A stretch of 64,000 bases of DNA from Patescibacteria group bacterium (GCA_026415775.1 JAOAGL010000001.1:6282-70281); one strand, 5' to 3'. Shown: positions 1 through 19,159, counted from the stretch's first letter. Notes: generated by a model not told the origin, from the letters alone. Made by a program: numbers and translations.

Positions 1-866
1 CTTTTAATTAAATTGGGCGGTTCGTATTTGCCGTAAAATTGATTACCCAATAAAGCGCTTTGTGACTCACGAGTCAAAAATCCATCATGATTTGGCCCGC
101 CAGTATAAGGCAAACTTAAAATATGAATAGCAAAAACACCAAAATAAGCTACAATAAAAATAGCAAACATTATTAATAATTCTTTAATAAAAAGTCTAAT
201 TTTATGAGGTCTACCGAAAGCTCTATCTAAAAATAAAAGAAAGATACCGACAGCCATAAAAACTAAAGCCGTCCATTTCACTAAAACGCCAGCAGTTAAA
301 AATAAACTGCCTAAAAATAATTCTGGAAAAGAATTTGAATCCAATTTTTTATATTCTCTCAGCCGCAAAATAAAATAGATACCCAAAGCGCCAAAAGCCA
401 AAAGAAAAATATCGGTAAAGATATATCGCGATTGCACCAAAATAGCATTGTCAAAAATAATTAATAACGAAGCTAGAAAGCCTGGCCATTTATTATAAAA
501 TAATCGCTTGCCGATCCCATAAATAGTCAAAACTAAAATTAAACTAAAAAACATTTCTACTCCTCTAAATAACTTATAAAAATCTCCTTTATATTTATTA
601 CCAATCTGGGAAAAATCAGTATTGTTTGTTTCGCTTAAACCAAAAATTTTTCCTGTTGCTGCCAAAATCATTTTTGCCAATGGCGGATGAATATCAAAAT
701 AAAATGTCCCTTTAAAATAATTAGTTGACCACTGCGCAAAATAAACTTCATCAAAAACCACCTCGTCGGGGTATCCAAAATAAGGAATTCTTGTTGTGGC
801 AGTCAAAATAATTAAAATCCCAATCAATACCCATTCTTTCTGAAAAAATTTAATTAAATTCTTCAT
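1..866 (-). CDS. Dolichyl-phosphate-mannose protein mannosyltransferase (PMT/GT39 family); partial, C-terminus beyond the window start
   Basis: Not in the ORF track because it runs off the edge. Minus-strand translation from the ATG at 866 (ATGA overlap with the TatD stop) gives MKNLIKFFQKEWVLIGILIILTATTRIPYFGYPDEVVFDEVYFAQWSTNYFKGTFYFDIHPPLAKMILA... The DEVYF and DIHPPL motifs are hallmarks of PMT/GT39 membrane mannosyltransferases, and the protein is multi-TM hydrophobic. Confidence 0.7.
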   Translation of the reverse strand, partial: MKNLIKFFQKEWVLIGILIILTATTRIPYFGYPDEVVFDEVYFAQWSTNYFKGTFYFDIHPPLAKMILAATGKIFGLSETNNTDFSQIGNKYKGDFYKLFRGVEMFFSLILVLTIYGIGKRLFYNKWPGFLASLLIIFDNAILVQSRYIFTDIFLLAFGALGIYFILRLREYKKLDSNSFPELFLGSLFLTAGVLVKWTALVFMAVGIFLLFLDRAFGRPHKIRLFIKELLIMFAIFIVAYFGVFAIHILSLPYTGGPNHDGFLTRESQSALLGNQFYGKYEPPNLIK

Positions 867-1691: not shown

Positions 1692-3170
1692 TTAATTTAA
1701 ACGCGGAAAAAGTGGCGGAATTCTTTTAACAATAAATTCCTTGCCCAAAAAATTAACTTCGTTGTTTGCTCCTAATGAATTTTTTATTTTAATAGCTGTT
1801 TCGGGAAGATAGGGAGAAATTAAATCTGATAAATTAATCAAAATCATCCACAAGCTGCTCAAAGTTTCATTTTTCTTTTGCTCTTCTTCAATAGCCCAAA
1901 CTCTTGTTTGATTTATAAAAGCATCCGCCTTACTAATTAATTGCAGAAAGGCTTCGGCAGCTTGATTAAATCGAAAATCAAGCATTGCCTCATCATATTT
2001 TTGCCACGCCTCATCAATATCATTTTTCAATAAATTACTTTCTATCTTTATCTTCCCACCTTGTTTTTCAATTAATGCTACAACACGATTTAACAAATTA
2101 CCCAGTCCATTAGCTAGTTCCTTATCATAACGTTCTTTTATATTAGCAATGGTTAAATCGCCATCTTGAGCTAAAGAAAATTCTTTTAATAAATAATAGC
2201 GAATAGTTTCTACTCCAAATTGTTTCGCTAATTCAACTGGATCAATTACATTACCAACCGATTTGGACATTTTTTGGCCCTCAATAGTAATAAAACCATG
2301 AATAATAATTTTATTAGGCAAACGCACTCCTGCTGACAAAAGCATTGCTGGCCAATAAATACAATGGAATTTCGTAATGTCTTTCCCAATAAAATGCCAG
2401 ATTTGGGTAGACTCATCTTCCCACCAAGCGCGATAAAGAGGAGAATTTACTGCATAGCCCAAAGCAGTAATATAATTGCACAAAGCATCAAACCAAACAT
2501 AAATTACTTGGGAGTCATCATTGGGAGTTATAATGCCCCAATTATGCGCTCGCTCTTTTGAGCGTGAAATACTAAAATCTTTTAACCCACCTCCAATAAA
2601 ATTCTCTATTTCTGCCTTGCGCGTTTCCGGAACAATTTCAATTTGATTATCCTGATAAATTTCTTTTAATTTCTGTTGATAACCAGAAAGTTTAAAGAAA
2701 TAATTTTTCTCGGAAATTAATTGAGGAGGTTGTTTATGATTCGGACATAAACCATCAATTAATTCCTCTTCTTTCAAATAATCTTCGCAGCCCGTGCAAT
2801 ATAATCCTTGATATTCGCTTTGATAAATATCTTTCTCTGCTGCTTTCCAAAATCTATTTACCCCTTCAAAATGGCGTTTTTCAGTGGTTCGAATAAAATC
2901 AGAAATGCTTATATTATAAAGTTTCAAAATATCTTTAAATACTTGCGCTTTTTTATCTACTAATTCTTTTGGTGAAATACCTTCTTTTTCGGCAGCCAAA
3001 GCATTTTTTAAACTATTTTCATCAACGCCAGTTAAAAAATAAACTTCGTTTCCTTTAAGTCTCTGATAGCGCACTGCACAATCAGCTTGAATAAATTCTA
3101 AAACATGACCCAAATGCGGATCAGCATTAGAATAAGGAATAGCGGTTGTAATATAAATTTTTTTAAGCAT
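1692..3170 (-). CDS. metG: Methionyl-tRNA synthetase (short form)
   Basis: 492 aa. Class I HIGH motif (PYSNADPHLGHVLE), KMSKS motif (QKMSKSVGN) and CTGCEDY zinc knuckle. Lacks a C-terminal tRNA-binding extension. Confidence 0.9.
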   Translation of the reverse strand: MLKKIYITTAIPYSNADPHLGHVLEFIQADCAVRYQRLKGNEVYFLTGVDENSLKNALAAEKEGISPKELVDKKAQVFKDILKLYNISISDFIRTTEKRHFEGVNRFWKAAEKDIYQSEYQGLYCTGCEDYLKEEELIDGLCPNHKQPPQLISEKNYFFKLSGYQQKLKEIYQDNQIEIVPETRKAEIENFIGGGLKDFSISRSKERAHNWGIITPNDDSQVIYVWFDALCNYITALGYAVNSPLYRAWWEDESTQIWHFIGKDITKFHCIYWPAMLLSAGVRLPNKIIIHGFITIEGQKMSKSVGNVIDPVELAKQFGVETIRYYLLKEFSLAQDGDLTIANIKERYDKELANGLGNLLNRVVALIEKQGGKIKIESNLLKNDIDEAWQKYDEAMLDFRFNQAAEAFLQLISKADAFINQTRVWAIEEEQKKNETLSSLWMILINLSDLISPYLPETAIKIKNSLGANNEVNFLGKEFIVKRIPPLFPRLN

Positions 3171-3216
3171 AATTAATAATATAGATAATAGTTAAACTTT
3201 TTAAATTTTCAAATTT

Positions 3217-3735
3217 ATGATTTTATCAGTTCATTTTATTACCGGCGCCGCCATTACTAAGATTATTCCCAATAAATTAATCGCCTATCCTTTGGCATTT
3301 TTAATTCATTTTCTATTAGATGCCCTGCCTCACACTGATTATTCACTACGCGGAATTTCTTCTGGTTGGAAAAAGAAAAATTTTTATGAAAGCGTTTTTA
3401 GTTTGATACTAGATACCTTATTTGGAATTGCTTTTATTATAATCTGGGCGATGGCTTTTGACAACTTTAATATAACTTCTGCGTTGGTCGGCGGATTTTT
3501 GGGAATTCTTCCGGATTTTTTGAATCTCATCTCTTATTTATTTCACAACAAAAACTTTCTTTTATTTATTAAAGGACATCCTTTAACTGATTTGGAAGAA
3601 TTTAAAACCCAAAGCCAAAATCTTTACTATCGCTTCCATCATTGGATACATAATGGCTCTGAATCATCTAATAGCATTGGCATTGCCACTCAAATAGTCA
3701 TTTTTTTAGCGGCATTAATTATTTTGCTGAAATAA
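3217..3735 (+). CDS. Hypothetical integral membrane protein
   Basis: 172-aa ORF with several hydrophobic segments. No recognisable motif. Confidence 0.4.
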   Translation: MILSVHFITGAAITKIIPNKLIAYPLAFLIHFLLDALPHTDYSLRGISSGWKKKNFYESVFSLILDTLFGIAFIIIWAMAFDNFNITSALVGGFLGILPDFLNLISYLFHNKNFLLFIKGHPLTDLEEFKTQSQNLYYRFHHWIHNGSESSNSIGIATQIVIFLAALIILLK

Positions 3736-3737
3736 AA

Positions 3738-3769
3738 AGCAAGGCCCGATAATCGGGCCTTGCTTTTTC
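3738..3769. terminator. Bidirectional rho-independent terminator between converging genes
   Basis: AGCAAGGCCCG-ATAAT-CGGGCCTTGCT perfect 11-bp stem, followed by TTTTT on the plus strand and AAAAA upstream. Confidence 0.8.
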
Positions 3770-3782
3770 ACATCATAAATTT

Positions 3783-4844
3783 TTATGGCAATGGTAAAGG
3801 GCTATATTGCTTTTTATTATTTAATTCCTTAATTGTTTCCTCAATAACAATAATTGTTGGTAAGGCAATCAAAACACCGACCACCCCACCTAATTTGGCG
3901 CCAATCAATAGTCCTACTATTACAATCACTGGATTAAAACCAATGGTTTTTTTCATTACTAAAGGAATAAGTATATCATTTTCTAGACGCTGAATAAGAA
4001 TAAAAACTAAAGCAGTCCAAAGTGCTAAGGGAACTGATTGAGTTAAGGCAATAAGAGTTGCTACAATGCCTGCTAAAATTGGACCAACAACTGGTACTAA
4101 TTCACACAAAGCAGCAAAGACAGCAAGAATAAAAGCATACTTTACGCCCAAAATCAACATCGCCGCTAAAACCATTATACCGATAAAACCACTTAACAAA
4201 ATCTGGGTACGCAACCATTTACCAAGTCGCAACTTGGAACGATACCAAATTCTTAAAACCGATTCTTCAATGCTTATTGGCAAAACAAATTTAATAAAAT
4301 CCGCCACACCATCCTTTTTAATCAAAAGATAAAAAGAAATTAAGAAAACAGTCACCACCGAAACAATACCACCACCCAAATTAAACAAAATTGCAAAAAA
4401 TTTTCCCGCATCTTCAAACAAAGACCCTTGATAAGTTGTTAGAAAATCCAAAATTTTTTCTCCTAATTGCGAGGTGGTGGCCGAACCTAAGATTTTTTCT
4501 GAAAAACCCGGCAATAAACTGCCAATATTTAAAATCTGTTCATAAACAATCGGGAAAGAAAAATATAAAACAATAGCGAGCAAAATTAAAATGAAAAGAT
4601 AAATAGCCGCCGCACCCAAAAAACGCGGAATTCTTTTCTTTTCTAGCCGATCAACAAGCGGCGAAAAAGCAGCAGCAATAATAATCGCCACAAAAAGCAT
4701 TACAAAAATTGAACGCAAAACATAAACCAGCGCTAAAATAATAATTAGCAAAATCAACCTCCAAAAACTCATCCACGATATCTCAATTTTTTTCACCTCC
4801 TCTGGCATTGATTTTATTATAGAAAATAAAGATAAAACAAGCAA
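3783..4844 (-). CDS. AI-2E family transporter (PerM/UPF0118 permease)
   Basis: 353 aa, 7-8 TM segments. C-terminal ...GVLIALPTIIVIEE... region is characteristic of the AI-2E family. Confidence 0.7.
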   Translation of the reverse strand: MLVLSLFSIIKSMPEEVKKIEISWMSFWRLILLIIILALVYVLRSIFVMLFVAIIIAAAFSPLVDRLEKKRIPRFLGAAAIYLFILILLAIVLYFSFPIVYEQILNIGSLLPGFSEKILGSATTSQLGEKILDFLTTYQGSLFEDAGKFFAILFNLGGGIVSVVTVFLISFYLLIKKDGVADFIKFVLPISIEESVLRIWYRSKLRLGKWLRTQILLSGFIGIMVLAAMLILGVKYAFILAVFAALCELVPVVGPILAGIVATLIALTQSVPLALWTALVFILIQRLENDILIPLVMKKTIGFNPVIVIVGLLIGAKLGGVVGVLIALPTIIVIEETIKELNNKKQYSPLPLP

Positions 4845-4889
4845 GTCAAAAATTTTATTAATTATCTTTTTAATTTATAATTAAAATAT

Positions 4890-5993
4890 ATGCGAGTTTT
4901 AATTTTAATTACCCACGGAAATATCGGCGGTGCAACTAATTTTGTTTACTGGCTCGCTGAAGGATTAAAACAAAAAAGTGTTGAAGTAACAGTCGGTTTT
5001 GGTGAGGGAGATTATTTAAAAAATCTTTTAGAAAAAGCAGGAATTAACTTTGTTAATTTTAAATGGCTAAAAAGAACACACAATCCCATTTATAATTTGT
5101 TTTTTATTAAAGAATTTAAAAAATATCTGGATAATAATCGTTTTGATGTTTGCCATTTCAATAGCACCAATACTCTTTTCGGAGCTATCGCTGCCAAATT
5201 ATCCAAAAACAAAACAAAAAATATATTTACATTTCACGGATTGTCTATATTAGACCCCAATTATAAAAAAAATTATTTTTTAAAAATTATTTATTGGCTT
5301 GTTTTTAAATTTTTACTTTTATTCATTGATACACCAGTTTTTGTTTGTAAAGCTAATTTGGAAACTGCCAAAAAACTTCATTTAGTTAAAAATGGCGCTG
5401 TAATTTACAATGGCATACCAGAACCAAAATTTTTATCACGCGATGAAGCACGAAATTTTTTTGCAAATAATTTATCCATTGAAATAAAAGATAAATTTGT
5501 AATAGGCTCAATTGGTAGATTAGATTATTCGAAAAATTATGAATTTTTGATAAAAAATTTTTCTGAAATCTTAAAAATAAAGCCCAATGCTATTTGTATT
5601 ATCATCGGCGAAGGCCCAGAAAGAAAAAAATATGAAAAATTAATTAAAAAGTTGGGATTAGAAACAAAATTTTTTTTACTTGGCGAAAAACAAAATGCCC
5701 CTCAATACATGAAAGGCTTTGATTTGTTTGTTTTACCATCAAGATATGAAGGATTATCACTTACTTTAATTGAAGCATTATTCGCTCAAATACCCATATT
5801 AGCAAGTGATGTAGGAGGGAATAAAGAAATAGTTGGGAAAGAAAATATTTTCCCTAATGATTTTAATGGTTTTCTCGAAAAAATTTCTTCGTATACATCA
5901 GCAAAAAAAGAAAATATAAACTTTATAATCTCACAAATGATAAAAAATTATAATATTTTTTATTCATCTTCTTCTAGTAATTTTTCCCACTGA
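4890..5993 (+). CDS. Glycosyltransferase family 4
   Basis: 367 aa. N-terminal MRVLILITHGNIGGA and C-terminal EGLSLTLIEAL...ILASDVGGNKEIV match the GT4 E-x7-E motif. Confidence 0.8.
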   Translation: MRVLILITHGNIGGATNFVYWLAEGLKQKSVEVTVGFGEGDYLKNLLEKAGINFVNFKWLKRTHNPIYNLFFIKEFKKYLDNNRFDVCHFNSTNTLFGAIAAKLSKNKTKNIFTFHGLSILDPNYKKNYFLKIIYWLVFKFLLLFIDTPVFVCKANLETAKKLHLVKNGAVIYNGIPEPKFLSRDEARNFFANNLSIEIKDKFVIGSIGRLDYSKNYEFLIKNFSEILKIKPNAICIIIGEGPERKKYEKLIKKLGLETKFFLLGEKQNAPQYMKGFDLFVLPSRYEGLSLTLIEALFAQIPILASDVGGNKEIVGKENIFPNDFNGFLEKISSYTSAKKENINFIISQMIKNYNIFYSSSSSNFSH

Positions 5994-8106: not shown

Positions 8107-8904
8107 TTAATTTATTAATTTTTTTAATAAACACAAAATCCGATAAATGATTAATTTTATAAAATAAATAATCAGAACAAAAGGACAACACATTAATAAG
8201 TCCTTATAAAAATTTTTTAAAAATTCTTTATGAACTTGATATATTCTTTCAAAATTATTCTTTTTAATTGATAATCTATCATCTCTCTTATTATTATATA
8301 TCCTCAAAACATGTTTAACAAAATATCCGCAAGAATTTTTTTTCAACAATTTTATCCAGGCTATTGATTCACCGCCCCTAATATTAATAGGAAACATTAT
8401 TGGCAAAAACAAATCTTTTTTTACCACCGTCAAAGCTTCACCCTTTATTTTCCCACATAAAAAATCTTTATAGGAAACCGGCCCCTCATAATCGGCTATA
8501 TTTATTGGAATATTTCCAACTAAATCTCTACAATTAAACAAAAAAATAGAAACATTGGGAAATTTATTTATATACTGATTAATAATTTTTAAGGCATCTG
8601 CCATTAATGAATCATCCGAATCTAAAAAAACCAACCACTCTCCAGAAGCTCGAAGAATACCAAAATTTCTTGCTATATTTGGACCTACATTTTTCAAAAA
8701 TGAAAAATATTTTATACGATTATCAATTGCAATATATTCCTCTACAATTTTTTTTGTATTATCATTTGAAGCATCATCAATAATTAACATTTCCCAATTT
8801 ATAAACGTTTGCGAAATAATACTTTCAATAGCATTTTTAATTATATCTGCTCTATTAAACGTGGGAGTAATAATACTAAACCGAGGAGTCATGGTAAAAA
8901 TCAA
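8107..8904 (-). CDS. Glycosyltransferase family 2
   Basis: 265 aa. FSIITPTFNRADIIKNAIESIISQTF...LIIDDASNDNT and FLDSDD are classic GT2 (DXD) motifs. Confidence 0.85.
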   Translation of the reverse strand: MIFTMTPRFSIITPTFNRADIIKNAIESIISQTFINWEMLIIDDASNDNTKKIVEEYIAIDNRIKYFSFLKNVGPNIARNFGILRASGEWLVFLDSDDSLMADALKIINQYINKFPNVSIFLFNCRDLVGNIPINIADYEGPVSYKDFLCGKIKGEALTVVKKDLFLPIMFPINIRGGESIAWIKLLKKNSCGYFVKHVLRIYNNKRDDRLSIKKNNFERIYQVHKEFLKNFYKDLLMCCPFVLIIYFIKLIIYRILCLLKKLIN

Positions 8905-14552: not shown

Positions 14553-16214
14553 CTATTTTTCGTCTTCTTTTCTTTCCTCTTTCTGACTCAATTTAGAAAG
14601 AGATTCACGTAAAGCTTTTTTCAATTCATCAACATTTACTTGTGCTTTTGGTTTTTCAGTTCCTTTTTTTTCTATTAATTTTTTGCCACTGCTTTCGAAA
14701 ATATTCTTAACGATTTTGGTTTCTAAACGAAGGGGTTTTGTTGGTGGGATAATTTCGCCTTTTTCTACACCCTCTAAACAAACTTTGCAGAAAACTGGTC
14801 TTTTGCCATCAGGTTGAAAAGGCACTTCTGTCTGCGCGCCACACACCCAACAAAAATCCATATAAGTTTTTTTCTTTTTTTCTTTTTTAACTTCTACAAC
14901 TTCCTGATTATTTTCCTCAGCGCCTTCCAACCATTCAGCGCTAATCTGCCTTTCAACTTCAATTCGTGGTTGACAATAAATCTTTCTTGTATTTTCAATA
15001 ATTTGTTGCTTAAAACTAATTTCGGGTTTTATTCGCGGCGGCAAAGTAACTGCCGAAAAAGCTTTTGATGTTATTCCATCAATCATCAATTTGAGATAAA
15101 TATTATATTTAGGCAAATTTACCAAGTCCGTTGCAGTGAATTCAGGCGCAAATTCTTTTTCTAACCATTCTGCATCTTCAGCGCCAACTCGAAAAACAAC
15201 AAAAGTACCCACATTACCAAAAATGGCTTCTTTAACGGATTCGGGCAATTGCCCAATATACTGATGAGAAATAATCAAAGATAAATGATACTTGCGAGCT
15301 TCAGATAAAATATTAGTGAAAGATTCTGTAGCAAAAGTCTGAAATTCATCAACATACAAAAAGAAATCTGGACGTTCTTCTGGTGGCACATCGGCACGAC
15401 TCATAGCCGCTTGTTGAATGCGCGTCACCATCATTGCGCCTAACAAAGCTGAATTGACTTCTCCAATGCGACCCTTGGATAAATTCACAATCAAAATTTT
15501 TCCCTCATCCATTATTTTCCTGATATTAAAAGATGATTTCGGCTGGCCAACGATATTTCTTACCAGGGGATTAGTAAGAAATTGGCCGACTTTATTTTGA
15601 ATAGGAGCAATTGCTTCTACTTGAAATTTTTCATGATAACGCGCGAATTCATTAACCCAGAAATTTTTCACCACTGGATCTTTCAAACCGGAAACAATAT
15701 AATCGCGATATTTTTTATCAGTTAATAAACGCATTATGCCCAAAAGCGTTGAATTGGGATATTCAAGAAGTGCCATCAAACAATTATTTAAGATATACTC
15801 CATTCTGGCGCTCCAAACATCTGGCCAGATTTTTTTAAAAATCTCCAAAATCCCGCTCGCTACCAAATGCCTCTGTTCCTCGCCTACTGATTCCAAAGGA
15901 TTAAAAGCAATGGGATAATCAGTATCGTGCGGGCAAAAATAAATAACATCTTCAAGGCGCTTCTCTGGTATATGCTCAAGTAATTCTTCGGCTGATTCGC
16001 CATGAGGATCAATAAAGGCCAAACCAAAGCCTGATTCAATATCGGAAATAGCCATATTAGTCAGCATAACCGTTTTACCCATACCTGTCTTACCAATCGC
16101 ATACATATGCTTTCGGCGGTCATCTAACTTAATACCAAATTTCACTTTTTGGTTTCGAAAATTCGTTTCAGCAAAAAAATTGATATTTTCCTCACTATAT
16201 TTTGCCTTTGCCAT
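14553..16214 (-). CDS. P-loop ATPase of the TraG/VirD4/TraD-like (DUF87/TraM-recognition) family, with C-terminal zinc ribbon
   Basis: 553 aa. Walker A GKTGMGKT, Walker B FLYVDEFQ, ARKYHLSLIISHQ (TraG-D_C-like), and C-terminal CWVCG...CKVC. Confidence 0.5.
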   Translation of the reverse strand: MAKAKYSEENINFFAETNFRNQKVKFGIKLDDRRKHMYAIGKTGMGKTVMLTNMAISDIESGFGLAFIDPHGESAEELLEHIPEKRLEDVIYFCPHDTDYPIAFNPLESVGEEQRHLVASGILEIFKKIWPDVWSARMEYILNNCLMALLEYPNSTLLGIMRLLTDKKYRDYIVSGLKDPVVKNFWVNEFARYHEKFQVEAIAPIQNKVGQFLTNPLVRNIVGQPKSSFNIRKIMDEGKILIVNLSKGRIGEVNSALLGAMMVTRIQQAAMSRADVPPEERPDFFLYVDEFQTFATESFTNILSEARKYHLSLIISHQYIGQLPESVKEAIFGNVGTFVVFRVGAEDAEWLEKEFAPEFTATDLVNLPKYNIYLKLMIDGITSKAFSAVTLPPRIKPEISFKQQIIENTRKIYCQPRIEVERQISAEWLEGAEENNQEVVEVKKEKKKKTYMDFCWVCGAQTEVPFQPDGKRPVFCKVCLEGVEKGEIIPPTKPLRLETKIVKNIFESSGKKLIEKKGTEKPKAQVNVDELKKALRESLSKLSQKEERKEDEK

Positions 16215-16282: not shown

Positions 16283-16310
16283 AAAGGGCCCAAAGGCCCC
16301 TTATTTTAAA
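16283..16310 (-). terminator. Rho-independent terminator downstream of the Cys-rich peptide gene
   Basis: On the minus strand, GGGCC-TTTG-GGCCC hairpin followed by TTTTTCATTTTTT. Confidence 0.7.
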
Positions 16311-16314
16311 ATAA

Positions 16315-16491
16315 TTAATAACTATTTGGTGGGTATTCTCCGCAGCTATCGGTATCACCACAGCATCCATCTTGATTGTCAGGAATGTCTTCTTCGCAGG
16401 AACTACCTACTTCATAATTTGATTTTATAAAAACAATTTTATCAATTGCATAGGATTCTAATTCTTCAAGGGTAATTATGTTCTCAGGCAT
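16315..16491 (-). CDS. Small Cys/Asp-rich peptide (candidate RiPP precursor)
   Basis: ORF-track 64 aa. The likely start is the second Met, because AGGAGGTG sits 6 nt upstream of ATGCCTGAG, giving MPENIITLEELESYAIDKIVFIKSNYEVGSS-CEEDIPDNQDGCCGDTDSCGEYPPNSY. The leader-like N-terminal half is followed by an acidic C-terminal segment with 4 Cys. Confidence 0.55.
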   Translation of the reverse strand: MPENIITLEELESYAIDKIVFIKSNYEVGSSCEEDIPDNQDGCCGDTDSCGEYPPNSY

Positions 16492-16625
16492 TTTCTCACC
16501 TCCTTTCATTTAAATTAACATGCTACTATTATAGTAATTATTTAAAAAAATAAGTCAATAATCAATAAAAAAACATTTGCTCTTTGCATTTATCTTAAGG
16601 TAAAATAAAGATATATAAGAAATAT

Positions 16626-17747
16626 ATGAGAAAAAATAACAAAAAAGAGGGGTTTTATCTCAAATTTATCATTAATAAATGGGCTAATTTCTTCTTTTTT
16701 ATTGATAATTTAGCTTTCCCCATTGATACAATGCATAAAGAGTATAACTCGCAGTGGTTAAATGAGTATGAATTAACAACAAAAGAAAAGACTGCTTTAG
16801 AAAAATATCGTCAATTTAAATACTTACTCTTTCGACAAGGCGGACGAAAATTATTTGATGATATAACAGCCATTTTCTATCAAAACACCAACTCAATAAC
16901 AAAAAGAAAAAAAGAATTATCAAGTTTTTTAAATAAAAAACAAATCAATGATTTAGAAAAAATCTTTTTTGTTTTTAAAAAACGTTTTAATAAAATATGG
17001 AGAAAGAATTTGCCTATTTTAAGTAATAATTTACAAAACATCCAAATTCATTATCAAAAAAAAGAAAAAGATTTTTTATTGGCTTTTGAACTCATTAAAA
17101 ACTTTTACCAAAATTCATCAGATAAATATTCGACTGAAATTTTTCTAATAATACGTCCTTTTGAGGGTTTTGTAGGTGGACGTGTTATTAGCAAATCACC
17201 CCACTCAAAAATATTAATCGAAAGCGGCAAAATTGGTAAAAAAAACAAAAAAATAATATGGAATCATTTCTGGTTACTATTATTGCATGAATTATGCCAT
17301 CTTTTTTTCGAAACAGAAATTTTTCAACAAAAATTAAATGATTTTCTAAAAAACAAGGAGGAGTTGAAACAATTTTTAGTTACTTATCCATCAACAAAAA
17401 CCGCCTATTGGGCAACACGACGTGTAATGCGCGAAATGATTATTAATAGCGTAGTCTTAAGCAGCAAAATAAAAAGAATTTTTGATAAAAATTATAGATT
17501 TAATAAAAAATTGGTTCTTTTGCGTATAAAAAATTGGTTAGAAAAAACCTCTTCAAATCCTAATGATTGGGGGGATATAATTCTTAAAGAAGGTGGGGTT
17601 TTTAAAGATTATATAATTATCAAAATAGATAAATATATAAATAAATATCTAGGAATAAAAGAATTGGACAATAAATTGTTAAATAAATTATATGAGATTC
17701 TCTATTATTTTCCTAAAAACTTATTGGAAGAGCTTTCCAAAAAATAA
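16626..17747 (+). CDS. Hypothetical protein with HExxH zinc-metallopeptidase-like motif
   Basis: 373 aa. LLLHELCHLFFE (HExxH...E). Otherwise no family recognised. Diverges from the peptide gene. Confidence 0.45.
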   Translation: MRKNNKKEGFYLKFIINKWANFFFFIDNLAFPIDTMHKEYNSQWLNEYELTTKEKTALEKYRQFKYLLFRQGGRKLFDDITAIFYQNTNSITKRKKELSSFLNKKQINDLEKIFFVFKKRFNKIWRKNLPILSNNLQNIQIHYQKKEKDFLLAFELIKNFYQNSSDKYSTEIFLIIRPFEGFVGGRVISKSPHSKILIESGKIGKKNKKIIWNHFWLLLLHELCHLFFETEIFQQKLNDFLKNKEELKQFLVTYPSTKTAYWATRRVMREMIINSVVLSSKIKRIFDKNYRFNKKLVLLRIKNWLEKTSSNPNDWGDIILKEGGVFKDYIIIKIDKYINKYLGIKELDNKLLNKLYEILYYFPKNLLEELSKK

Positions 17748-17756
17748 AAAGAGGAG

Positions 17757-19037
17757 TTAAAAATACTCCTCTTTTTTATTTAGCAAAAATTTTAGCATTT
17801 CTTTAGTGGCAATTTGAATATCCTCACATCTATAACTGGGTTTTCTCCAAAAATTATAGCCATATAACAATGCCTTATTAGCCGGGCAATCTCCTGCGCA
17901 ACTATATCGAGCAAAACAATTTTTACATTGAGGTATACTATCTATTGTCAATTTTTTCAAAAAATTATATTTTTTACTATCAAATATAAATGATTTCTTG
18001 TCGAAATTAAAATCACCAAAATGAAAAACATCGCCCATACTCCCATTTTCAATCATTCTATGACAAGCAAAAATTCGATTATCATAAGTAACCATAAAAT
18101 TTTTCCCTGCCACACCACAAAAAGAATATCTTCTGTCTTTGTCCAATTTTAAAACCGAAGTTCGTATTCTTGAATTAAATTTTCTACCAATTTCTACACT
18201 TTCCAAAAATTTTGTAAAAAAATCTCTTGGATTAGGTGAACTAGCAAAAAGACACTTTGAATCATTTACTGAAAAAACTGGCTCATACAATTGAAAACAT
18301 CCAGGAAAATTATTAGCTAAAAAAGAAACGATATCCGGCAAGTATCTTACACTAAAAGCTGAAATAGTAATACGAAAACTTAATTTTTTAAAATCTTCTT
18401 CATAAATTCTTTTAGCATTCTCAAAAATTATATTAAAAGTTTTACCTCTCTGTTTATTGTGTATCCAAGCCGGACCATCTAAAGAAATTAGGATTTTATC
18501 TATATTTTTACAAAGCCATTCTGCTTTCTTCTTATCAAAAAATCCATTCGTTGTCATATTTATAATACCTCGAGTATTATTCTTTAAAATTTGGTCTCTT
18601 GCGTAAGTGGTTATTCTAACTAGAGTTTCCCACGCCAATGTTGGTTCTCCACCGAATAAATCAATTCTGACTTTAGAATATTTTTTTGATTGGGCATTTC
18701 TCAAAATATAATTTATAGCAGCATAAGCAGTTTCCAACGGAATTACTGCAGAATTTTTTTTATCAAATCCACCGTAATTCCCAAAACAATAAGTACAATT
18801 TAAATTGCAAGCATTTGTTAAGAGTAAAACTGCATTTGTAAAACAATAATCTGAATTTTCAAAATCAAAATGATTCCTCGCCTTGTCTTCAATAGCAACA
18901 AAATCAGGTATTTCCCTTGCTGATTTCGAATTAGCTACATAAAAAATTTCTGACAATTCAGGGATATAAATAATTATTTTTTCTCCATCGGGAATTTTAA
19001 AAACCCTTACAATTTCTTTATTGTCTTTATTATTCAT
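17757..19037 (-). CDS. Radical SAM / SPASM-domain peptide-modifying enzyme (anSME-like maturase)
   Basis: 426 aa. CNLNCTYCF (CxxxCxxC) at about residue 77, GGEPTL, and C-terminal CKNCFARYSCAGDCPANK SPASM auxiliary-cluster motif. A 70-aa N-terminal extension could be an RRE-like domain. Confidence 0.75.
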   Translation of the reverse strand: MNNKDNKEIVRVFKIPDGEKIIIYIPELSEIFYVANSKSAREIPDFVAIEDKARNHFDFENSDYCFTNAVLLLTNACNLNCTYCFGNYGGFDKKNSAVIPLETAYAAINYILRNAQSKKYSKVRIDLFGGEPTLAWETLVRITTYARDQILKNNTRGIINMTTNGFFDKKKAEWLCKNIDKILISLDGPAWIHNKQRGKTFNIIFENAKRIYEEDFKKLSFRITISAFSVRYLPDIVSFLANNFPGCFQLYEPVFSVNDSKCLFASSPNPRDFFTKFLESVEIGRKFNSRIRTSVLKLDKDRRYSFCGVAGKNFMVTYDNRIFACHRMIENGSMGDVFHFGDFNFDKKSFIFDSKKYNFLKKLTIDSIPQCKNCFARYSCAGDCPANKALLYGYNFWRKPSYRCEDIQIATKEMLKFLLNKKEEYF

Positions 19038-19159
19038 AATTACCTCCTTTTTTTGATTTTTTAATTTTCTAAATATAGAATAGAATATATTTTTAATTTG
19101 TCAACTTATGAAATTATACCTTGTTTAATCTGATTTTTTATAGTAAAATCCATTATTGT

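Follow-up and report, generated by a model that had tools for sequence, protein, structure and literature searches.

Peptide maturases of the radical S-adenosylmethionine (rSAM)/SPASM type are the closest described counterparts of the locus considered here, a three-gene cassette in a 64,000-nucleotide (nt) stretch of DNA (hereafter the window) from a bacterium of the Patescibacteria, or Candidate Phyla Radiation (CPR), which encodes a Cys/Asp-rich peptide, an rSAM/SPASM enzyme and an HExxH protein. In the PapA/PapB system of Paenibacillus (freyrasin), PapB joins the sulfur of Cys to the C-beta of Asp or the C-gamma of Glu within Cys-X3-Asp/Glu, accepts spacers of n = 0-6 residues and changes the mass by -2 Da per link (PMC9413430). 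QhpD, of the QhpD/QhpC system (TIGR03906), likewise forms thioethers from Cys-S to Asp C-beta and Glu C-gamma (PMC10114670), its substrate being an enzyme subunit. CteB, the maturase of SCIFF peptides (TIGR03974; PDB 5WGG/5WHY), is a thioether-type SPASM enzyme acting on a short Cys-rich peptide, and carries a full recognition element (RRE) for peptides that are made by ribosomes and modified after translation (RiPPs), with ~90 residues before the rSAM core (alignment from chain residue 91). The sulfatase maturase anSME (TIGR03942; PDB 4K36-39) has the same rSAM/SPASM fold; its chains are ~370 amino acids (aa) long, with the CxxxCxxC motif near residue 15.

Judged by model scores, the rSAM enzyme of the window belongs to no named equivalog: it resembles PapA/PapB and the wider ranthipeptide/SCIFF group and fails the tests of each named family. 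It shares with PapB the rSAM/SPASM architecture with a full 7-Cys SPASM domain, the similarity extending over the catalytic and SPASM domains; indeed, when hhalign was run against the Paenibacillus ottowii homologue of PapB (locus L027, named by its NCBIfam match, and whose peptide carries CX3D motifs), the probability was 99.7% and the identity 26%, with an alignment beginning at residue 61. The PapA-like peptide of L027 and the cassette peptide are also alike: each has its leader at the N-terminus, and a core rich in Cys and Asp in which Cys stands upstream of Asp. However, the two systems differ in the N-terminus of the enzyme (~65 aa in the cassette, unalignable to the ~93 aa of PapB), in the Cys-to-acid spacing (mostly 1-3 residues against the CX3D of PapA, which places the cassette peptides outside the Cys-X3-Asp/Glu definition of PapB substrates), in the partner gene (an HExxH protein, whereas ABC-transporter genes follow the PapB homologue of L027) and in the host (a CPR bacterium against Paenibacillus). 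With respect to SCIFF, the maturase scores 109.8 bits against a cut-off of 425, the window peptide matches no SCIFF or other precursor model, and the full RRE of CteB contrasts with only ~65 residues and one helix in the cassette enzyme, for which thioether chemistry is predicted. All 10 members of the enzyme clade match the QhpD model (best E 1.7e-30), yet the score is 81 bits against a cut-off of 453; neither dehydrogenase subunits nor a QhpE-type protease were called or seen in the loci examined, and the candidate substrate is a stand-alone peptide of 40-80 aa rather than an enzyme subunit. Finally, anSME, the second-best group among solved structures, has no N-terminal domain, the alignment starting at anSME chain residue 14. 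A role as sulfatase maturase was rejected, as the anSME model gives only 53.4 bits against a cut-off of 349.45 and no sulfatase occurs in any neighbourhood gene table viewed. Note that the literature retrieved in our searches on ranthipeptides, RiPPs and SPASM enzymes in Patescibacteria/CPR consists of generic antiSMASH-type counts in surveys of biosynthetic gene clusters or is irrelevant to this locus, and does not describe the family.

Altogether, the cassette looks like an undescribed family, or a variant, of the thioether-type rSAM RiPP systems, and we consider this explanation as a whole (a three-gene RiPP-type cassette with thioether chemistry and an HExxH peptidase) to be probable. A preliminary description of the locus had placed here three open reading frames (ORFs) of 64, 373 and 426 aa, with which our ORF listing agrees, and the window proteins are identical to NCBI entries with the locus tags N2692_00135 and N2692_00140. 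The genes and their parts are as follows:

16315..16509, minus strand: longest form of the peptide ORF, 64 aa (ORF listing)
16315..16491, minus strand: likely form of the precursor peptide gene, with the second Met as start and a length of 58 aa (MPENII...), MPENIITLEELESYAIDKIVFIKSNYEVGSSCEEDIPDNQDGCCGDTDSCGEYPPNSY
16405..16491, minus strand: leader region, about residues 1-29, with the motif h-x-L-x-E-L-E-x-h-A and then hydrophobic IVFI; boundary approximate
16318..16404, minus strand: core region, about residues 30-58, with 4 Cys (C32, C43, C44, C50); boundary approximate
16626..17747, plus strand: gene of the HExxH protein ("family A"), 373 aa, a predicted cytoplasmic zincin-like metalloprotein; divergent relative to the peptide gene, convergent relative to the rSAM gene
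17286..17300, plus strand: HELCH motif, residues 221-225 (H221, E222, H225), on a putative metal-binding, catalytic helix
17433..17435, plus strand: codon of E270, candidate third metal ligand (gluzincin-like), a Glu 45 residues after H225
17757..19037, minus strand: gene of the rSAM/SPASM peptide maturase, 426 aa (PF04055, TIGR04085)
17826..18119, minus strand: SPASM domain with seven Cys (TIGR04085 and invariant Cys in the alignment)
18786..18809, minus strand: CxxxCxxC (C77, C81, C84), ligands of the SAM-binding [4Fe-4S] cluster, invariant in the alignment
18843..19037, minus strand: N-terminal domain of the rSAM enzyme, ~65 aa, from predicted fold and family conservation; candidate leader-binding module

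The peptide and the radical SAM/SPASM enzyme

The association of the two genes was counted over 14 related loci with readable DNA (designated L and a number), in each of which the rSAM gene has a small ORF no more than ~2 kb away, as the preliminary description would lead one to expect of homologous loci. This ORF displays a leader and a Cys/Asp tail in L001, L002/3, L004, L005, L006 (two pairs), L085, L086, L166, L169, L170, L171 and L172, and a Cys-rich repeat peptide takes the place of this type in L007. The rSAM enzymes are ~40-51% identical in L001, L002/L003, L004, L166, L169, L170, L171, L085 and L086, those of L005, L006 and L172 being more distant. In one further locus, available as a gene table only, gene calling placed a 48-aa gene upstream of the rSAM gene at a distance of 70 nt. 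By taxonomic label, the window, L005 (Berkelbacteria) and L006 belong to the Patescibacteria, and the second-tier locus L007 to the Desulfobulbaceae. No alternative substrate gene was conserved in the neighbourhoods viewed, and we consider it very likely that the peptide and the rSAM enzyme form an enzyme-substrate pair.

Concerning the peptide itself, translation likely starts at the second Met (16491), the 58-aa form being preferred because a GGAGGTG ribosome-binding site (RBS) lies 5 nt upstream and because gene calling put the start of the closest homologue at the equivalent Met. In accordance with the preliminary statement that it belongs to no described family, neither Pfam nor NCBIfam gave a match for the window peptide at E <= 0.1, and a word-index protein search returned only the peptide itself; among nine family peptides (the window's included) compared with NCBIfam at E <= 1, seven had no match and two had non-significant ones, far below the cut-off. 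Homologues were recovered through the genomic context of the rSAM homologues, and their alignment shows an invariant Leu11 and a leader consensus M-x-L-x-E-L-E-x-L-A-I, followed by a hydrophobic stretch and then by the Cys/Asp-rich tail. The window core contains 4 Cys and 8 Asp/Glu, no Lys or Arg, and the motif DGCCGDTDSCGEY, which is common to its relatives, with an acidic residue 1-3 positions downstream of each Cys. Its C-terminal end is DGCCGDTDSCGEYPPNSY and that of the L001 peptide, the closest relative, is DGCCGDTDSCGEYPPNTY; over the last 18 codons, synonymous changes between the two genes number 7 and non-synonymous ones 1, which shows purifying selection on the translated core. The DSCG(D/E) motif also occurs in L166, L085 and L172 and is retained down to 29% rSAM identity. 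On a larger scale, in the cores of 12 peptides, in which Cys and Asp are similar in number, Asp or Glu is found 1-4 residues downstream of 68 of the 76 Cys (nearest acid at offset 1 for 21 of them, at offset 2 for 18, at offset 3 for 25 and at offset 4 for 4). Cys with a nearby downstream Asp/Glu is the sole feature common to all cores, Tyr and Pro not being conserved. A PQQ- or mycofactocin-like role (PQQ, pyrroloquinoline quinone) for the C-terminal Tyr was accordingly rejected, since the family as a whole does not conserve the Tyr/Pro tail.

Several peculiarities were observed in the related loci. In L172, an uncalled 39-aa ORF (189-308, plus strand; MEMGEENCIDVEEIAEQADISVSLSAPKSVCVCDSCGDY) lies upstream of the 29%-identical rSAM gene, with which the DSCG(D/E)Y motif reaches distant relatives and which indicates that gene callers miss these precursors. 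In L007, from a Desulfobulbaceae metagenome-assembled genome (MAG), the rSAM relative, which has the N-terminal domain of the family, is followed by a 124-aa protein (2736-3110, plus strand) with ~20 Cys in repeats of the C-x-C-(D/N/H)-x-V type, a much longer and possibly different substrate class. In L001, the rSAM gene P0002 as called opens (4990-5060) with a copy of the peptide RBS region and of the first ~17 leader codons, fused in frame (MPSAIELKKLESLAMGE at the rSAM start, compared to MPPTIKLEKLESLAMGE in the peptide), and the full peptide gene (8281-8517, minus strand) is found 1.9 kb off, beyond the HExxH gene; this arrangement is either a rearrangement scar or a natural leader-enzyme fusion. 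In L006, a Patescibacteria MAG, two tandem rSAM-peptide pairs are present (1435-2853 and 3959-5478), and since both rSAM ORFs as listed open with MRNNFPKEGKMF, the 5' region looks duplicated. The two L006 peptides differ, one having a 16-Cys core of C-x-C-D-S repeats and the other a short C/P/D-rich core.

The enzyme is an rSAM/SPASM protein by its match to PF04055 (Radical_SAM; 52.7 bits, cut-off 29.5), which places it in the superfamily, and to TIGR04085 (SPASM; 41.8 bits, cut-off 27), the Pfam SPASM model PF13186 giving 15.6, below its cut-off of 21.5. The CxxxCxxC and C-terminal SPASM Cys motifs reported earlier are both present: C77, C81 and C84, as well as the SPASM residues C307, C325, C371, C374, C380, C384 and C404, are invariant in the ten clade members, and the seven SPASM Cys would be enough for two auxiliary clusters. 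The top NCBIfam model is the PapB ranthipeptide maturase NF047865 (138.9 bits), which is also the top model for all nine relatives (best E in the clade 1.8e-43), followed by the nif11 (114 bits), SCIFF (ScfB; 110 bits) and QhpD (81 bits) models. Among solved structures, the best match of the sequence profile is the thioether synthase CteB (5WGG, E 8.8e-34), with anSME second, and a Foldseek search with the AlphaFold2 (AF2) model (predicted local distance difference test score, pLDDT, 84) also matched CteB (E 2e-19, template-modelling score, TM, 0.70-0.73). SCIFF, CcpM, CefB, CXXX-repeat and the other named precursor or maturase families were rejected as assignments, because all scores are below cut-offs and the peptides match no significant model. 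The earlier interpretation as a thioether-type rSAM RiPP system is thus supported by the top hidden Markov model (PapB), the top structure (CteB) and the recurrent pairing with the peptide, and the comparison with rSAM-SPASM families gave no indication of a non-RiPP clade (anSME 53 bits compared to 139 for PapB, and no sulfatase neighbours).

The N-terminal extension, initially put at 70 aa, is real, conserved and ~65 aa long. In the AF2 model, five short strands and a single short helix are seen within the first ~65 residues (at residues 8-49), with a pLDDT of ~90 over residues 11-50, and K14, P26, L28 and P44 are invariant in the ten clade members. The domain is found in every family locus, down to 29% identity, and is absent from PapB; its profile compared to the N-termini of 116 other rSAM/SPASM enzymes gave a non-significant result (probability 3.8%, E 0.011, 34 columns). 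We suggest that this domain is probably a candidate leader-binding module, which may be a truncated RRE or something else.

The HExxH protein

The 373-aa protein matches no Pfam or NCBIfam model, and a word-index search gave eight relatives, none of which has a Pfam domain. By profile search, family A comprises at least 525 representative clusters (defined at 50% identity) at E <= 1e-3, 320 of them at E <= 1e-10, and is therefore a large, unannotated family. H221, E222 and H225 are invariant in a 9-sequence alignment, and over 43 diverse members W125, H225 and E270 are invariant while H221, E222 and G184 are at least 90% conserved. On sequence grounds, the HExxH motif with a Glu 45 residues further on, after a GG-containing strand, is a gluzincin-like pattern. 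Indeed, the protein shares with minigluzincin, WLM-SprT and M1-type zincins the HExxH helix after a beta-sheet with a conserved GG strand and the invariant downstream Glu; in contrast, its large helical N- and C-terminal domains (18-161 and 280-371) are without counterpart in these zincins, and the Glu spacing of 45 residues differs from M1 peptidases, in which Glu follows 18 residues after the motif. The AF2 model (pLDDT 89.8) displays a helical N-terminal region, a three-stranded sheet (168-200), the HExxH helix (208-228) and a helical C-terminal region. Foldseek found nothing significant for this model in the PDB (best E 0.31), and the profile of the 43 sequences compared to the PDB retrieved only proteases, namely Wss1 (E 0.0018) and proabylysin (E 0.33); weak SprT-like Pfam matches were seen in 7 of the 43 members.

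In 10 of 15 loci, the window included, an HExxH partner of ~340-395 aa is found tail-to-tail with the rSAM gene (with an M16-like ORF between the two in L085). The partner belongs to family A in the window, L001, L166, L169, L171, L087 and L005, and fragments of such a gene, which looks broken up, are left in L006. A second family, B, whose members are 39-48% identical among themselves, occupies the equivalent site tail-to-tail in L002/L003 and L170, and in L085 beyond the M16-like ORF. The two families, neither of which matches a Pfam or NCBIfam model, were aligned by hhalign (24% probability, E 8.5e-4) only over the core made of the strand, HExxH and, ~44 aa further, Glu. The association of the HExxH protein with the rSAM enzyme is frequent, positionally conserved and facultative. 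We propose tentatively that the protein could be the leader or processing peptidase, an assignment on which opinions may fairly divide.

As for the arrangement, the rSAM gene and the HExxH gene converge in the window, L001, L002, L005, L166, L169 and L170, their 3' ends being separated by 8-15 nt or overlapping (by 9 nt in L005 and by 4 nt in L170), and the gap reaches 52 nt in L171. Partners conserved tail-to-tail and not in an operon are unusual, and in the window a single hairpin covers both ends. Other HExxH and protease genes were also noticed. The 4.9-kb contig L167, which has no rSAM gene, carries in its 1911-4793 region a family A protein (P0106) flanked by two other small HExxH ORFs, one of 211 aa and one of 208 aa that faintly matches Peptidase_MA_2, and the contig also encodes a 58-aa Cys/Asp/Glu-rich peptide (MSTQDLSELGIL...CDCVQCDCPHDCTDCIQECLDCTEEC...). 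The extra small HExxH ORFs of L001 and L167 were rejected as a component of the system, as they are not recurrent. The ORF between the rSAM and family B genes of L085 (1964-3205, plus strand) encodes an M16 (pitrilysin-like) peptidase, and an M16 gene 34% identical to it lies near a family A member in L168 (7082-8353, minus strand); in a way that recalls PqqF/G of PQQ maturation, M16 may be a second protease partner that recurs.

Proposed mechanism and competing explanations

Under our explanation, the 58-aa peptide would be a precursor with a leader of ~29 residues and a Cys/Asp/Glu-rich core of ~29 residues, and the rSAM/SPASM enzyme would bind the leader, probably via its short beta-rich N-terminal domain. 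Reductive cleavage of SAM would then lead to hydrogen abstraction from an Asp (at its beta-carbon) or a Glu (at its gamma-carbon) a few residues past each Cys, and this carbon would be bonded to the sulfur of the Cys, bound at an auxiliary cluster, as for PapB and QhpD. The window product would thus contain as many as four small thioether rings (-2 Da per ring), with C32 paired with E33-D35, C43/C44 with D46/D48 and C50 with E52 as candidates, after which the cytoplasmic, Zn-dependent, gluzincin-like HExxH metallopeptidase may remove the leader or trim the product. Precursor and recognition are backed by comparative evidence, and we infer the cross-link chemistry and the processing; a beta/gamma thioether to Asp/Glu is the bond that we cautiously favour.

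A number of observations weigh against this explanation. The rSAM enzyme lies below every NCBIfam equivalog cut-off (139 compared to 340 for PapB), so that its reaction is not transferable by homology, and the natural PapA-like CX3D spacing (offset 4) concerns only 4 of the 76 core Cys, offsets 1-3 being dominant. The preliminary description had also proposed an RRE-like leader-binding domain; while a conserved, family-specific domain does exist, its RRE nature found no support, since no PqqD/RRE Pfam match was obtained at E <= 0.1, and a canonical RRE was rejected because the domain is not a winged helix in the AF2 model and the N-domains stayed unaligned in the hhalign comparison with PapB. 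L004, L086, L172 and L007 have rSAM-peptide pairs without an HExxH partner, which is therefore facultative; family A is far larger (525 clusters) than the rSAM clade and has members, in L165 and L168, with neither an rSAM gene nor a Cys-rich peptide in their vicinity, and the partner may have a more general role. In addition, the peptide, HExxH and rSAM genes lie on alternating strands and hence form separate transcription units, not an operon, and no exporter, transporter or immunity gene is present in the cassette or conserved across the loci.

There are other explanations, the first of which concerns the bond itself. It is conceivable, although we judge it improbable, that the rSAM enzyme makes an alpha-carbon sactionine, oxidizes Cys, epimerizes residues, or forms a C-C or C-O cross-link at the C-terminal Tyr/Pro, the acids serving solubility or metal binding. 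Indeed, all family scores are far under the equivalog cut-offs, the sactipeptide, cyclophane and ether-forming SPASM models also score 45-65 bits, and the bond formed by a SPASM enzyme is not yet predictable from its sequence (review PMC10114670). However, PapB is the top model in every clade member, QhpD, the other enzyme making Cys-Asp/Glu thioethers, is matched by all 10, and the only conserved feature of the cores is Cys near Asp/Glu, to the exclusion of Tyr and Pro.

For the third gene, the HExxH protein could be a general housekeeping metalloprotein of CPR bacteria whose adjacency is inherited synteny, in which case the cassette would be reduced to the peptide and the rSAM enzyme, and the leader would be cut by an unlinked protease or not at all. 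The size of family A (525 representatives, 320 at E <= 1e-10), the members of L165 and L168, the absence of the partner from L004, L086, L172 and L007, and the convergent orientation of a gene that is not co-transcribed with the rSAM gene all speak in its favour. Nevertheless, two barely related HExxH families occupy the same tail-to-tail site beside rSAM enzymes only 40-50% identical and in otherwise unrelated neighbourhoods, and in L167, a short contig with no rSAM gene, a family A member is accompanied by a Cys/Asp-rich peptide; we therefore regard simple synteny as a rather poor account of the partner.

Still less probable to us is that the HExxH protein is an oxygenase dependent on alpha-ketoglutarate (alpha-KG) and Fe(II), of the ChlH, BpmH or PflC/PosC type, which would hydroxylate the beta-carbons of core Asp and leave the peptide-rSAM pair unchanged. 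Such alpha-KG-HExxH enzymes, whose fold recalls that of zincins, were initially mis-annotated as metallopeptidases; they are fused to or found beside rSAM RiPP maturases and hydroxylate Asp (PMC12636437), and the core of our peptide is Asp-rich. However, nine family members had no alpha-KG-HExxH match in NCBIfam at E <= 10, no family member matching any of its models at this threshold and hence none TIGR04267/IPR026337, so that membership of the alpha-KG-HExxH family was rejected. The alpha-KG-HExxH model, TIGR04267, is presumably contained in the NCBIfam library. In contrast to the known beta-hydroxylases (ChlH, BpmH, PflC), protease structures score higher, Wss1 and proabylysin being the only matches of the PDB profile, and the invariant Glu 45 residues past the motif fits a gluzincin metal site. 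Moreover, Patescibacteria are mostly anaerobic fermenters without a tricarboxylic acid (TCA) cycle, which makes them a poor setting for O2/alpha-KG chemistry.

Finally, a stand-alone metal-binding role of the small ORF (metallothionein- or chaperone-like), with the rSAM enzyme acting on another substrate, would agree with a core rich in Cys and carboxylates and devoid of basic residues, a composition typical of chelators, but is highly implausible given the strict co-localization with one rSAM clade (14 loci), the leader-like conserved N-terminus, the co-conserved N-domain of the enzyme and the fact that no other substrate gene is conserved in the neighbourhoods.

Transcription signals, surroundings and significance

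The signals found around the three genes, in a window with a GC content of 32.9%, are the following:

16283..16302, minus strand: intrinsic terminator, hairpin and T-run, 3' of the peptide gene; its GC-rich stem was scored on the plus strand too
16497..16503, minus strand: RBS of the peptide, GGAGGTG, 5 nt upstream of the 58-aa start; read from the sequence
17746..17776, both strands: hairpin with a 12-bp stem, which overlaps the 3' ends of both the HExxH and the rSAM gene where these converge
19042..19047, minus strand: RBS of the rSAM gene, GGAGGT, 4 nt upstream of the start; read from the sequence
19077..19104, minus strand: best promoter-like site of the region, TTGACA-16-TATTCT, 10/12 consensus matches; a consensus match alone, without statistical support

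The RBS and the terminator earlier ascribed to the peptide gene were both recovered, as the GGAGGTG read in the sequence and the hairpin at 16283..16302 on the minus strand. Its own promoter, also claimed, was not verified, since sigma-70-like sites are not enriched at the locus (23 compared to 19.7 +/- 4.5 in shuffles of this AT-rich DNA). Terminator-like sites number 5 for 1.1 expected, and the stop codons of the HExxH and rSAM genes are 9 nt apart. A repeat scan of the locus gave only AT-rich noise besides the inverted repeat at 17746-17776, Rfam had nothing at the locus and only four tRNAs elsewhere in the window, and the rSAM gene, the HExxH gene and the Cys/Asp peptide each occur only once within the window. 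Directly past the peptide terminator, a gene at 14553-16214 (minus strand) encodes a coupling-protein ATPase of 553 aa that resembles VirD4/TraG/TrwB and carries at its C-terminus a treble-clef zinc finger, CxxC-x17-CxxC (PF23477, 39 bits; TIGR04272, 41 bits); this gene is not kept beside the cassette in other loci.

In its fullest form, our reading would make the cassette an undescribed RiPP family, encountered so far mostly in assemblies of Patescibacteria/CPR, with very small Cys-X0-2-Asp/Glu rings, a shortened non-canonical leader-binding domain and a new, two-form family of zincin-like partners, a combination that we consider unlikely to hold in every part. The clade adds substrates with a shorter Cys-to-acid spacing than the PapA-like peptide of L027 and an enzyme without a detectable canonical RRE, and both bear on substrate recognition and bond choice in SPASM enzymes. 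PapB-type enzymes are already in use for peptide stapling, and relatives preferring tighter rings, if true, could widen this toolbox. A defined candidate substrate also offers a first experimental handle on an unannotated HExxH family of at least 525 clusters, and the HExxH partner could catalyse a new chemistry that is neither leader cleavage nor the known alpha-KG hydroxylation.

CPR bacteria have very small genomes, many are attached to hosts, and they are generally held to have little secondary metabolism. Because of these minimal genomes and this host-attached lifestyle, it is conceivable that the peptide acts as a signal or as a host-interaction molecule; a conserved modified peptide in such bacteria, if true, could serve signalling or interaction with the host rather than be an antibiotic. 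The conservation of the cassette across divergent CPR lineages suggests that its product matters to their lifestyle.

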